Part shown: in pieces, positions 7,664 to 22,426 of the stretch
Layout: each line of letters opens with the position of its first letter
How positions within the stretch are numbered: position 1 is the first letter of the stretch
Assembly: GCA_964486045.1 (NCBI GenBank)
Contig: CAZALK010000001.1
Span: 264,142 to 328,141, forward strand
DNA from: an uncultured archaeon
GTDB taxonomy: Archaea > Asgardarchaeota > Lokiarchaeia > Sigyniarchaeales > SOKP01
Length of the DNA: 64,000 nt
Direction of reading: 5' to 3'
Made by a program: the position numbers and the translations under genes
The notes under the pieces: generated by a model
Seen by the model: the letters and a program-made list of their open reading frames with translations, nothing else
What the model was told of the DNA's origin: nothing
Database searches by the model: none

Positions 7664-9058
7664 ATGCCAAATTCAAAGAAAAAAGATAATCCAACTCGAG
7701 AACTGCCGATAAGCCTACAAGGTATCGAAACTATTTTACTATTTTTAAATGAAAAGGATAAAACAACGTCGAGTATCCGAAATATTAGCGAACAGACCAG
7801 ACTTTCCATGAGAGTCGTAAAAAATATACTTTTACAATTGGAAAAATTCAATCAAGTAGAGAGAGTCACAGTAAAAAATAACATCCTTCCAAAATGGGGG
7901 ATTACAAAATTTGGAAAGAAAGTTATAAAAGAAGCGAAGGGTATAGAAAAGAATATTAAATTTTTGAGTAGAGAAGATGAATTGTTATATAGAATTTCTG
8001 TCTATGAAAGCATTGATGACTTAAAAGAAGAAAGCAGGCAAAAACAAGAATCTATTATTTCTGAATTAGGGGCCTTACAAGTTGAATTAAGTAAAATCTT
8101 TGGTCCAATCCTTAACATAAATAATCCGATTTTTGAAGATTTGGTGAGTTTTTTTATTAAGCGAGTCAAATTTCTTAACCAACGAGTATCAAATTTACTT
8201 AAAGACCCAATTGCCAGTTATTCATTAAAAAAGATAGGTGAAAAACAGAAAAAAGTTTCAAAAGAAAAAGAAAAACTTTTATTCACAGAAATTTATTTCT
8301 TCAATTCAGTAATATTAAACGAAATAAAGCGGATATCTGATTTCATGATTAATTTATCGCACTTTATTGAGAATGAAGCGATTTCTAATGCTTATTCAGT
8401 AGCAATCGATCTGAGGGAAGAGATTAGATTATTAACAAGTTTTATTTATCAAAGAGAATCTTTAACTGTAAATTCTCATAAACTCCCAACTGAAGATTTA
8501 AAGCAGTTATCTAAAAATAAATTTAGCGTAGAAATTTTAGATAATATAATTGAAATTCCTATGGATGACCCACAGCGAATGAAGGGAATAGAAGATGCTG
8601 TTTTAGAATTCTTGGCTTCGCTAAATAAAGGTGAGAAACTATTAAAAGACCATAGCCATGAAATTTCTGAAAATATTCCTTTATATGCTTTATATCAATT
8701 AATTTTGGATGAAAAACCAAATTTGAATTTTACCATAGATAAATTGGAACGTGTAATAAATTCTCTTGCTGATAGTGGATACATACCAGGAATAAAGATT
8801 ATCCAAGAAGATGAAGACCATTATCTTAAAGTTGTTCAATTGAGAGCACATGATATTTCAGAGGATGAATCAAATCTCATTTCTTTTGCGCTTAAACTTC
8901 AAAAATTCACAATAGCTGATATGATAGGAGCAAGTGGTTGGACCATGGCAAAAATTACTAAAATTTTAAATACACTTACCGAGCTTGGAATCATCAAATA
9001 TTCGAAATCTTTTTTACACGGTGAACAATGGTATATAGTTTCTGAGCATAATGATTAA
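7664..9058 (+). CDS. N-terminal winged-HTH, helical middle, C-terminal tandem winged helices resembling ESCRT-II Vps22/Vps36 (EAP30)
   Basis: SIRNISEQTRLSMRVVKNILLQLE HTH; C-terminus FTIADMIGASGWTMAKITKILNTLTELGIIKY...GEQWY resembles the SNF8/Vps22 second winged helix. Confidence 0.7.
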   Translation: MPNSKKKDNPTRELPISLQGIETILLFLNEKDKTTSSIRNISEQTRLSMRVVKNILLQLEKFNQVERVTVKNNILPKWGITKFGKKVIKEAKGIEKNIKFLSREDELLYRISVYESIDDLKEESRQKQESIISELGALQVELSKIFGPILNINNPIFEDLVSFFIKRVKFLNQRVSNLLKDPIASYSLKKIGEKQKKVSKEKEKLLFTEIYFFNSVILNEIKRISDFMINLSHFIENEAISNAYSVAIDLREEIRLLTSFIYQRESLTVNSHKLPTEDLKQLSKNKFSVEILDNIIEIPMDDPQRMKGIEDAVLEFLASLNKGEKLLKDHSHEISENIPLYALYQLILDEKPNLNFTIDKLERVINSLADSGYIPGIKIIQEDEDHYLKVVQLRAHDISEDESNLISFALKLQKFTIADMIGASGWTMAKITKILNTLTELGIIKYSKSFLHGEQWYIVSEHND

Positions 9059-9111
9059 TTTAAGAATATATAAAATAATTGAATAAAAAAATTAATTTAA
9101 AATTAAAATAA

Positions 9112-9975
9112 GTGAGGATAAACATGTTTAGAGAAATAAAACATAAAAAGTTCAAAGATTCTGACCCTCAAATTATAGCATGGCAGAGAGGAGATAGGGG
9201 AGCTTTCGATACCCCGTTAATGTATATCTTTCCTCAAAGGGGAGATAACATTAAGGAAAAGAAATTTTTTGCTGTAAAAGACTATGAAAAAGCAATTTTT
9301 TACAATAAAGGAGCGTTAGTTGCTGTTCTTGGAGGGGGTATATACGAACTTGATAAGAATGCAAGAATTAAAGGGACTGAAATAGTTTGGATTGATACAT
9401 CCTTTACTGAAATTCCATGGGGTATTCCACAATCGGAGGGTATTCCTACTAAAGATGGATATATTATTGGATTATATGGAGATTTAAAATTAAAAATTAG
9501 TGACCCAAAAATATTCTATAACGATGTCGTAGCAGGTACGAAGATATGGACTATTCAAAATCTTAAAGAGTGGATTGTTGGTCTTATACATACATCTTTA
9601 CGAGATATATTCAAGACTTGTACTGCGAAAAGTATAATTTTAGAAGATCGTGAGCGTGTAATTAACTTAATAACATCTAAAGTTACTGAAGAATTTTTAA
9701 GATATGGTTTAGAACTTGAAACATTTAATGTAATTGGTATAAAAGCTCCTGAAGATGCTGAAAAATTATTAATGGATGATAGAGAAAAAATTCAATATAT
9801 TACTAAACAGAAAAAGGATCTCAAGAATCGCATTGAAGATCTAAAGAATAAATTAAAAGAACAACAGGATCTTTTAATAAATGATAAAATTACTCAAGAA
9901 GATTACGAGAAAAAGAAAAAGCAAATTCAAATTTTTATCGACGAAGTTCAAGAGGAATTAAAAACAATTAGTTAA
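9112..9975 (+). CDS. SPFH (band 7) domain protein with coiled coil and SHOCT-like tail
   Basis: VKDYEKAIFYNKG..LGGGIYEL; IPWG; EEFLRYGLELETFNVIGI; ITQEDYEKKKKQI. Confidence 0.8.
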   Translation: MRINMFREIKHKKFKDSDPQIIAWQRGDRGAFDTPLMYIFPQRGDNIKEKKFFAVKDYEKAIFYNKGALVAVLGGGIYELDKNARIKGTEIVWIDTSFTEIPWGIPQSEGIPTKDGYIIGLYGDLKLKISDPKIFYNDVVAGTKIWTIQNLKEWIVGLIHTSLRDIFKTCTAKSIILEDRERVINLITSKVTEEFLRYGLELETFNVIGIKAPEDAEKLLMDDREKIQYITKQKKDLKNRIEDLKNKLKEQQDLLINDKITQEDYEKKKKQIQIFIDEVQEELKTIS

Positions 9976-10060
9976 AACAAATTATATTATCCTAATTTCA
10001 GGGAAATCTCGAAAAATGAAGAATAATTAATTAAAAAAATTAGACAAAGAAAAAATTTAA

Positions 10061-20486: not shown

Positions 20487-20554
20487 TTATTAAAAAAAAT
20501 TAATACTTTTAATTTAAGGGAAGAGAAGAAATTCACCTAATAAAATAAATTATA

Positions 20555-21337
20555 ATGTCAAAAACAAATTTTGAAAAGAGATTTCTAGCGATTAAGAATC
20601 TAGTTCAAGAAGAATTATTTTCAAACGCGAAAAATGAGTTGAACAACATTAAAGAGGAGGCTAAACTCCATAATTTGGATGAAACTCTTAAGCGGGCAAA
20701 TGAAATATTAAATTTATGCGAAAAATTAGAAAAAAATATGGAACTCAAAAAAAAAATTTCCGTGATTAAAAATCTAACTCAAGAACAACTATTTTCAGAG
20801 GCTTAAAAAGAGTTAAACGACATTAAACAGGAGGCTAAACTCCATAACTTGGATGAAATTCTTAAGCGTGTAAATGAAATATTAAATTTATGCGAAAAAT
20901 TAGAAAAAAAGAAGGAGCTCAAAAAAACAATTCCCAGGATTAAAAATCTAATTCAAGAGAGGAAATTTCCCGATGCTAGTGTCGAGTTAAAAAATGTTAG
21001 AAATATTGCCAAACGATATAATTTAGACGAAATTATTAGTTGGGCTCAAAAGAATTTAGATATATGCAATAAACATATAATTAAAAAGACAATATTAGAA
21101 TTAGGAACTAAATTTACGCGTCTACAAATCGTAGAAATTTCGGAAGAATGCGATGTAAAGGATGAGAAATTAATTGTAGATATTGTAAGAGAGATGATTG
21201 ATAACAAAGAAATATATGCCCAATATTTCTCTAGTACAAAATCAGTTGCGTTTAATCAACAGGCCAATATTGATGAAATTGACAAATTAATGGCGACTTA
21301 TAAAGAATGGGAAGAAAAGAAAGTTGAAAAGAAATAA
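20555..21337 (+). pseudogene. Helical-repeat + PCI-like protein split by one in-frame TAA at 20804-20806
   Basis: ORFs 20555 and 20849 share a frame; three ~58-aa repeats; the stop sits where repeat 1 has AAA (gcg aaa aat gag vs gct taa aaa gag). Confidence 0.85.
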
Positions 21338-21382
21338 ATCTTATTTATTTTTATAATAGAAAGATAAGAATCAAAAATGTAA

Positions 21383-22426
21383 ATGTGGGATAGAATGACA
21401 AAAAATTCTAAGAGAGAAACTATTATTGATGAAGAGATAGATTTAGAAGATGTTACCTATCAAGAAATAATTAACGAGATAAATGGAATTTTTAACCATT
21501 TAACACTTGAAATAAATAAACAGATAAAACAAGTAGAAATTTTAACAGATGAAGAACGATGGACAAAGGAAAAAGCGAGACGAAAAGCACAAATAATATC
21601 TTTCAGAGGGGCACAAATCCCTCGATATGAAGCAGATTTCCTTCAAAAAATAGAGAAACAGGTAGGCAAACAATTTAGGAAAGTAGATATATCAATTATT
21701 GAAGACGGAGAAAGTCAATGGAGCTTTTCAGTAGAGAATCAGCGAATTACTGGAATTGATCTCTTTGAATGTTTAATAAGGGTTCTCCCAGATACAATAG
21801 GCAAGCTAAAATCGCTCAAAGTGCTAGGTTTGGGAGGTAATACTTTAATGACTCTCCCAGAGTCAATAGGCGACCTAAAATCGCTCCAAATTCTAGGTTT
21901 GGGGCGTAACCAGTTAAGGAATCTCCCAGAGTCCATAGGAAACCTCACCTCGCTCGAAGACCTGTATTTATATCGGAATAAGTTGACAACTCTCCCGGAG
22001 TCAATAGGCAACCTTAAATCTCTCCAAGAATTAGATCTAACGAAAAACCAATTAACATCTCTTCCGGAGTCAATAGGCAACCTAAAATCGCTCTTTTCTC
22101 TAGATCTGCGTGGTCACCAATTAACATCTCTTCCGGAGTCAATAGGTAACCTAAAATCGCTCGAAAATCTAGATCTGCGTGGAAACCAATTAACATCCCT
22201 TCCGGAGTCAATAGGCAACCTAAAATCGCTCTCTTATCTAGATCTACGTGAAAACCAATTAATATCTCTTCCGGAGTCAATATCTAAGCTTACAACGCTC
22301 AAGAGATTAAATTTAACAAATAATCTTTTAGCTAGAAAGCCAAATTCAAAAACTAAATCCATTTTAAAGCAGCTAAAAAAAAAATGTTTAAAGAACAAAA
22401 ATATGATATATATATTGATAGATTAA
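21383..22426 (+). CDS. LRR protein lacking the PCI-like module
   Basis: About 8 x 23-aa LRRs (NQLTSLPESIGNLKSL). Confidence 0.9.
   Translation: MWDRMTKNSKRETIIDEEIDLEDVTYQEIINEINGIFNHLTLEINKQIKQVEILTDEERWTKEKARRKAQIISFRGAQIPRYEADFLQKIEKQVGKQFRKVDISIIEDGESQWSFSVENQRITGIDLFECLIRVLPDTIGKLKSLKVLGLGGNTLMTLPESIGDLKSLQILGLGRNQLRNLPESIGNLTSLEDLYLYRNKLTTLPESIGNLKSLQELDLTKNQLTSLPESIGNLKSLFSLDLRGHQLTSLPESIGNLKSLENLDLRGNQLTSLPESIGNLKSLSYLDLRENQLISLPESISKLTTLKRLNLTNNLLARKPNSKTKSILKQLKKKCLKNKNMIYILID

Follow-up and report, generated by a model that had tools for sequence, protein, structure and literature searches.

The UFM1 pathway of eukaryotes comprises the modifier UFM1, the activating enzyme (E1) UBA5, the conjugating enzyme (E2) UFC1, the proteins UFL1, DDRGK1 and CDK5RAP3, and the proteases UFSP1/2. 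Bacterial Bil operons combine genes for an E1, an E2, a JAB protease and a ubiquitin-like modifier (Ubl). The same set, without a dedicated E3 and with a patchy distribution, forms the bacterial Bub operons (PMC11601596). Archaeal ubiquitin operons (Caldiarchaeum; Asgard Ub-ESCRT; PMC6043591, PMC9192718) hold E1, E2 and JAMM protease genes beside ESCRT-like neighbours; their modifier is ubiquitin and their E2s are of the UBC type. According to the survey PMC10183829, UFM1 and UFC1 are confined to eukaryotes and UBA5 derives from bacteria, which makes the pathway a eukaryotic mosaic. Structure-based Ufm1 homologues from nine Asgard clades (Kostlbacher et al., PMC12962969) were reported alone, with no UFC1, UBA5 or operon in the main text. 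Here we describe an operon located in the 64,000-nucleotide window G000:C1:264142-328141 of a 5.18-Mb archaeal genome (99% complete); the close homologues of its proteins are records of Promethearchaeota (Lokiarchaeia). Because its E1, E2 and modifier each independently indicate the same pathway, the operon is kin to the UFM1 pathway, and in our judgement it is likely an accessory cascade for Ubl conjugation, a homologue of the UFM1-UBA5-UFC1 core of eukaryotes, with presumably UFM1-like chemistry.

An open reading frame check finds all four genes of the original prediction, which had proposed an operon-encoded UFMylation system, on the same strand (positions refer to the window):
13585..14412 (+), UBA5-like E1, 275 aa, GTG start; PDB UBA5 E 2e-47; catalytic Cys190 at nt 14152
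16898..18109 (+), JAMM/JAB metalloprotease, 403 aa, probable ATA start; Pfam Prok-JAB E 6.6e-8, over the cut-off; in 23 of 26 loci
18148..18414 (+), UFM1-fold modifier, 88 aa, mature (ending in Val-Gly88); AlphaFold2 model with a predicted local distance difference test (pLDDT) of 88.6, compared with Foldseek and VIA
18411..18953 (+), UFC1-like E2, 180 aa, TTG start; catalytic Cys137 at nt 18819; CGK at the TAK position; Trp164 corresponding to UFC1 W145

Among solved structures, human UBA5 is the best relative of the E1 (residues 15-279); MoeB (2e-31) and Uba1 (6e-23) come after it. The alignment takes in both the N-terminal extension and the motif of the catalytic Cys, and the UBA5-type motifs that had been read at both places are indeed aligned in the HMMER alignment to PDB 6h78. 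As a paralogue control, the top ThiF paralogue of the genome favours ThiF/MoeB (4e-53), without any UBA5 match at 1e-25. The E1 belongs to the ThiF superfamily (Pfam), and it stays far under the NCBIfam equivalog cut-offs of MoeB (129 bits vs 266) and UbaA (92 vs 450), that of ThiF likewise being missed. It possesses an ATP-binding Gly motif, two CxxC zinc sites, the crossover-loop catalytic Cys190 and a C-terminal amphipathic helix; Cys190 and the four zinc cysteines are invariant among homologues. Its start is probably GTG 13585, and the resulting 275 aa are the usual length of close homologues. Like UBA5, the E1 is minimal, with a Cys in the crossover-loop region, absent from BubCD, and an N-terminal extension. 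Judged by sequence, its adenylation domain is nearer to UBA5 than to MoeB/UbaA. The spacing of its tail fits the UFC1-binding sequence of UBA5 (L394/L397/M398/K400/M401/K402; PMC8481289), and six of the seven UFC1 pocket positions for the UBA5 tail are hydrophobic in the operon E2 (compared after PMC8481289).

The E2 resembles UFC1 in its N-terminal helix, its conserved Lys and Trp and the lack of an HPN motif; canonical UBC (Pfam UQ_con) has no match in it. Its catalytic C137, aligned to UFC1 C116, is invariant in 32 homologues, and W164 aligns to W145. The UFC1-type N-terminal and GIAH..W-type motifs named in the original prediction are borne out by the invariance of P29, W34, R37, E41, H155 and W164 in the same homologues. 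Family profiles searched against the PDB place UFC1 structures all first (E about 3e-6), single-sequence PDB searches giving nothing meaningful. In Foldseek, the AlphaFold model (pLDDT 84.7) matches UFC1 at ranks 1-29 throughout, with template modelling (TM) scores of 0.60-0.65 vs 0.36 or less for UBCs, and hhalign aligns the E2 profile to eukaryotic UFC1 with 97-98% probability (E 7e-14) vs 4% to Asgard UBCs. The E2 profile yields 52 matches in 1.84 billion proteins, including eukaryotic UFC1 and, among the sequences inspected, no canonical UBC. Grouping of the E1 with MoeB/UbaA (search scores) or of the E2 with generic UBCs (profiles and fold), the computational outcomes that would contradict the original prediction, was thus not observed. 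An insertion before the catalytic Cys distinguishes the operon E2 from eukaryotic UFC1. In two quick trees, both with long-branch warnings, UFC1 and the operon E2s stand apart from UBCs; one tree puts eukaryotic UFC1 among divergent Asgard rows, the other next to the operon E2s, so the trees give no direction of descent. As far as sequences tell, the operon E2s appear to form a group beside eukaryotic UFC1, not demonstrably ancestral to it. When metagenomes were scanned with eukaryotic UFC1, the loci retrieved were 56-70% identical and are presumed to be eukaryotic.

A predicted E2-modifier complex (score 0.43, best control 0.02, contact agreement at least 62%, partner pLDDT at least 75) was not used as evidence, because support is weak in this score range and a like complex, UFC1-UFM1 (8bzr), is already solved. 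The mark was reached by 58 of 80 solved and 2 of 110 mismatched pairs; at 0.60 or less, by only 7 of the 80 solved pairs and both mismatches.

The modifier ends in Val-Gly, as predicted, and its stop overlaps the TTG start of the E2 by 4 nt. Among 34 homologues Gly88 is invariant and Val87 at least 90% conserved; a C-terminal Val-Gly is a hallmark of UFM1 (PMC10952357). With the predicted fold as query, Foldseek places UFM1 at ranks 1-3 (TM 0.79-0.83 vs 0.73 or less for ubiquitins). A second look at the Foldseek matches with VIA gives UFM1 ranks 1-11 (Z 12.6-13.5, root-mean-square deviation 1.9 Å over 84 residues), the next family reaching Z 10.7. Modifier profiles against the PDB find UFM1 at best with E 0.75, and a single-sequence search found nothing meaningful. 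The modifier is assigned to UFM1 by predicted fold, not by sequence; UFM1-specific features, originally claimed for each component, are present in E1 and E2, and in the modifier by its Val-Gly end and fold, not by sequence. It probably belongs to the Asgard Ufm1 set of PMC12962969, in line with the original remark that UFM1-like domains had been noted in Asgard surveys. Several homologous modifiers bear short tails after Val-Gly, the one of this operon being encoded mature, and Ubl-E2 fusions occur at 9 loci and in 12 of 46 clusters. Tailed modifiers and fusions imply cleavage by the neighbouring JAMM protease.

That protease had been taken for part of the UFM1 pathway. The JAMM/JAB gene itself stands, with a revised start, and it is not of the UFSP type. 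Its frame opens at 16892, and the probable ATA start at 16898 lies behind a GGTGA element (window 16887-16900); ATG 17108 as start would drop the catalytic Glu region. Many relatives carry ATA, ATC, ATT or GTA at the same position, and because such starts are non-canonical, gene callers truncate JAB and lose this region. The motif (an upstream Glu and HxH-x8-S-xx-D) is kept in homologues and is followed by a long C-terminal region without recognised fold. UFSP (Peptidase_C78) was detected in none of five genomes, where no positive control gave a signal either.

The proposed four-gene operon is confirmed by synteny among 26 loci that each span 9.9 kb or more around a homologue of the E2: E1 and JAB are present in 23 each, the modifier in 24, a 360-aa protein in 22, and a winged-helix and a Band 7 protein in 20 each. 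Of the three loci without E1/JAB beside the E2, one reaches a contig edge, one is a decayed copy and one involves a fusion protein. The E2 occurs in 25 of 161 genomes of the class and 38 of 400 of the phylum, in eight families, with only 4 of 53 genomes in its own genus; carriers include the cultured Ca. Lokiarchaeum ossiferum (CP104013.1), complete Heimdallarchaeum genomes, Sigynarchaeum and Hermodarchaeota records. Genomes with a strong modifier match hold the E2 as well in 31 of 33 cases. Two genomes contain decayed remnants, and one contains two copies. The operon is nearer to a copy from another genus (E2 95%, 360-aa protein 89%) than to one of the same genus (79% and 62%), a pattern which ribosomal proteins do not show and which suggests, on sequence identity, lateral transfer or paralogy with loss. 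We regard the operon as an accessory system because of its patchiness, decayed copies, duplication in one genome and genus-discordant identity.

E2 remnants with stops are found at L087 (G154) and L088 (G138); the adjoining winged-helix gene survives in G154, as would fit an operon lost in place. A Patescibacteria-labelled record (L119, JANBVM010000027.1), probably a mis-binned Loki contig, contains an E2 fragment of 91% identity.

Of the range 7664-22426 originally assigned to the system, only 7664-18953 holds the conserved cluster. The remainder to 22426 is lineage-specific, as are the leucine-rich repeat (LRR), tetratricopeptide repeat (TPR), GTPase and transmembrane genes inside 7664-18953. 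The other genes of the region are:
5827..7203 (-), divergent TPR + PCI/tail-helix protein, just outside the range; same module family
7664..9058 (+), 464-aa helix-turn-helix/helical/tandem winged-helix protein with EAP30-like C-terminus (ESCRT-II Vps22/36); conserved operon member, 20 of 26 loci
9112..9975 (+), SPFH/Band 7 protein, 287 aa; Pfam Band_7_1 E 4.5e-12; conserved member, 20 of 26 loci
10061..11407 (+), 448-aa protein with C-terminal PCI-type winged-helix + tail-helix module; Pfam PCI E 3e-5, module profile (hidden Markov model) E 1e-25; lineage-specific insertion, candidate adaptor
11453..12535 (+), 360-aa protein with a Cdc48/p97 N-domain-like half and C-terminal zinc ribbon; 22 of 26 loci, the most constant accessory gene
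12662..13549 (+), Arf-like GTPase domain + PCI/tail-helix module; Pfam Arf E 2.7e-4, below the cut-off; lineage-specific insertion
14466..16001 (+), LRR protein + PCI/tail-helix module; lineage-specific insertion
16092..16841 (+), membrane protein + PCI/tail-helix module; lineage-specific insertion
19002..20486 (+), transmembrane + TPR + PCI/tail-helix protein; lineage-specific
20555..21337 (+), helical-repeat + PCI/tail-helix gene, single frame broken by one in-frame stop after codon 83 (either a recent inactivation or a sequencing error)
21383..22426 (+), LRR protein without PCI/tail-helix module; not conserved with the operon

Eight of 19 homologues of the EAP30-like protein match Pfam EAP30 (best E 1.7e-9). 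The 464-aa protein gives 0.83 in the ESM Atlas, a lead only; in Ca. L. ossiferum its winged-helix part and the 360-aa protein form one fusion. The Cdc48-N-like half of the 360-aa protein matches Asgard Cdc48 N-domains (hhalign 90.9%, E 1.2e-6) without an AAA domain; an ESM Atlas search with it gave no usable match. The PCI-type winged-helix + tail-helix module is common to seven local genes, and all intact copies of the genome surround the operon. Its profile was found in 11 of 16 operon genomes not used to build it vs 26 of 140 other genomes, an association confounded by relatedness and genome size. The idea of mere passengers was dropped, since the module copies cluster around the operon. 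UFL1 and DDRGK1 are PCI-like winged-helix proteins as well (PMC9627666), for which reason the modular proteins are candidate adaptors: by analogy, those with LRR, TPR, GTPase or transmembrane parts may serve as swappable substrate adaptors.

Beyond the homology, conserved catalytic residues, synteny and distribution that were observed, we infer the chemistry, targets and role throughout. A homodimeric E1 would adenylate Gly88 of the modifier and then hold it as a thioester on Cys190, docking the E2 via its C-terminal helix where this helix exists. The modifier would be passed to Cys137 of the E2 and then to target lysines. The JAMM protease, in place of UFSP, would trim tails, cut Ubl-E2 fusions after Val-Gly and remove the tag. 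Targeting would most likely take place at membranes via the Band 7, EAP30-like winged-helix and Cdc48-N-like proteins, and the local LRR/TPR/GTPase/transmembrane library may supply the adaptors.

Several results speak against a UFM1-type cascade of this kind. The modifier shares only 10-14% identity with UFM1, Pfam Ufm1 (PF03671) matches neither it nor anything in 400 Asgard genomes, and a wide VIA search does not list UFM1 among its top 50. The UFM1-interacting sequence (UIS) and linker are lacking from the E1, which ends about 30 residues past the last zinc Cys without a Trp-containing motif, some homologues being shorter still. A profile of its tail retrieved no UBA5 from the PDB, so that the tail likeness is not statistically detectable, and the tail helix is absent from 4 of 14 homologues, including Ca. 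L. ossiferum. At the TAK position the E2 reads CGK, homologues mostly CGK, TGK or AGK with the Lys at least 90% conserved; T106 of TAK is essential in human UFC1, and T106C abolishes RPL26 ufmylation (PMC12032130). The oxyanion chemistry of the operon E2 must therefore differ or be weaker. The proposed adaptor module is lacking in 5 of 21 operon genomes and present in 26 of 140 others. As to an anti-virus function, PADLOC models (2023 library) match neither E2 nor modifier, and the E2 was found in no viral contigs, phages or plasmids.

Low identity (10-20%), the missing Pfam Ufm1 and wide-VIA matches and a Pfam UFC1 score of 21.8 bits (E 1.6e-4) under the gathering cut-off of 25, reached by one homologue (27.1), could mean that an unrelated prokaryotic Ubl system resembles UFM1, UFC1 and UBA5 only by sharing a generic fold. 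We deem this most improbable, as three components independently select the same pathway with clear score gaps and the E2 profile retrieves UFC1, not canonical UBCs, from the large protein search. A related reading keeps the ancestry and denies isopeptide conjugation, the operon serving as a sulfur carrier (ThiS/SAMP type) or in lipid modification; the ThiF-superfamily E1, CGK in place of TAK and the Band 7 and ESCRT-II-like neighbours, suggestive of membranes, would suit it. Sulfur relays, however, do not require an E2, whose catalytic Cys is invariant among operon copies; the conserved operon includes no rhodanese domain or sulfur-pathway gene, and a separate MoeB/UbaA-like E1 of the genome adjoins apparent sulfur-transfer genes. 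A sulfur or lipid function is accordingly quite improbable.

For the conjugation cascade, a conditional stress or anti-virus function, and not constitutive ribosome quality control, is the most likely role. A specifically anti-viral role as in bacterial Bil/Bub operons, by tagging of viral proteins or a block of membrane budding with LRR/TPR proteins as sensors, is possible, yet we hold it at somewhat less than even. The four-gene logic equals that of Bub operons (PMC11601596), and the patchy distribution, decay and genus-discordant identity fit, as do the reuse of a Cys-less E2 and Ubl in a SIR2-TPR fusion of one homologue and a restriction-modification methylase gene about 18 kb away. On the other hand, PADLOC (2023 library) gives only generic E1 and weak JAB matches, no integrase, transposase or tRNA occurs among the genes scanned around the operon, and differential loss would fit the patchiness too. 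Unlike Bub and Bil components, those of the operon resemble UBA5, UFC1 and UFM1 and lack PADLOC matches for E2 and Ubl. Membrane-protein stress or quality control as the role is only slightly less likely than the anti-viral one. That the cascade is a functional forerunner of ribosome UFMylation, tagging uL24 on stalled membrane-bound ribosomes together with a UFL1/DDRGK-like protein, is improbable. The genome does encode an 806-aa PCI/DDRGK/UFL1/Vps28 protein (G000:C10), probably the Vps28-UFL1 fusion noted in 10.1101/2020.10.19.343400; membrane-related genes adjoin the operon, and uL24 (G000:C15:118903-119256, L269; 142 aa against 116 positions of the archaeal/eukaryotic model) possesses a Lys-containing C-terminal tail, human RPL26 being modified at K132/K134 (PMC10952357). 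But the UFL1/DDRGK-like gene is unlinked to the operon and occurs in 137 of 161 class genomes vs 25 of 161 for the E2, hence mostly without the operon and not co-distributed with it, which fits a role independent of UFM1 (PMC10183829). Such patchiness is not likely in a housekeeping ribosome pathway, and the conserved operon members include no recognisable ribosomal or translocon gene. The compatible Lys-bearing uL24 tail is the sole link of the operon to uL24 or to quality control of ribosomes, which is probably not its role in archaea.

The cascade is a variant homologous to, not identical with, eukaryotic UFMylation. It shares with that pathway a UFM1-like fold, the Val-Gly end and, in some homologues, precursor tails. 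It differs in being operon-encoded, patchy and apparently mobile, in its JAMM instead of a papain-type UFSP, the absence of linked UFL1/DDRGK1 and of a UIS, CGK for TAK, the insertion before the E2 catalytic Cys, frequent Ubl-E2 fusions, and linked Band 7, EAP30-like and Cdc48-N-like genes. The system was originally called a complete precursor of UFMylation. 'Complete' does not hold: no UFSP was detected, UFL1/DDRGK1 are missing from the operon, the UIS is missing too, and CGK stands in for TAK. Nor is 'precursor' supported, the E2s standing beside UFC1 rather than being demonstrably ancestral to it; because the operon is patchy, genus-discordant and sometimes decayed, 'sister system' describes it better than 'proven ancestor'. 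Core UFM1-type chemistry probably predates eukaryotes. That an archaeal ancestor gave eukaryotes the whole UFM1-UBA5-UFC1 core as an operon is less likely; it would have conjugated at membranes with ESCRT-II-like, Band 7 and Cdc48-N-like partners, JAMM later being replaced by UFSP, and the Loki winged-helix + tail-helix proteins would be modular E3-like adaptors docking on the E2 like the UBA5 tail. We view this scenario as unlikely as a whole.

A conserved archaeal operon with homologues of all three core components challenges the picture of a eukaryotic mosaic. The operon is real, well conserved and apparently unpublished as such: no description was found in the literature searched, whose coverage largely excludes subscription journals. 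It is directly testable, as a four-protein system open to in vitro reconstitution and present in the cultured Ca. L. ossiferum, and it provides naturally occurring variations on UFC1 chemistry (CGK for TAK, lack of a UIS, Ubl-E2 polyproteins). Ubiquitin-type E1/UBC pairs are encoded separately in the same genome.

A scan of the cluster for bacterial-type promoter and terminator signals gave only chance level. Just downstream, two small Rab-like GTPase genes lie on the minus strand (window 23654-25078, recognised by eye), and window 27568-32697, 37345-39435 and 48234-54136 encode a 1709-aa protein that matches DUF4379 zinc fingers, an Eco57I-type methylase and MutS/MutL.

Related domains recur in other arrangements. 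L080:9331-12024 (G031; like P0094) combines a SIR2-like part, TPRs, a UFC1-like domain with Ser for the catalytic Cys and a C-terminal UFM1-like domain without terminal Gly; the operon is not nearby, and the arrangement looks like an immune-sensor-like reuse of the module. Proteins P0119-P0129 (e.g. L286:5738-6973; 400-550 aa) have an N-terminus that appears UFM1-like, after which comes a UFC1-like domain without Cys; one of them is Hodarchaeales-labelled, with no E1/JAB annotated beside it. L166:6001-11237 (GCA_054042625.1 / SRR33094772) holds a divergent operon with a Ubl-E2 fusion, a JAB, a winged-helix protein, a small membrane protein, a ThiF-family E1 seemingly without crossover Cys and a DUF87 (HerA-like) ATPase.

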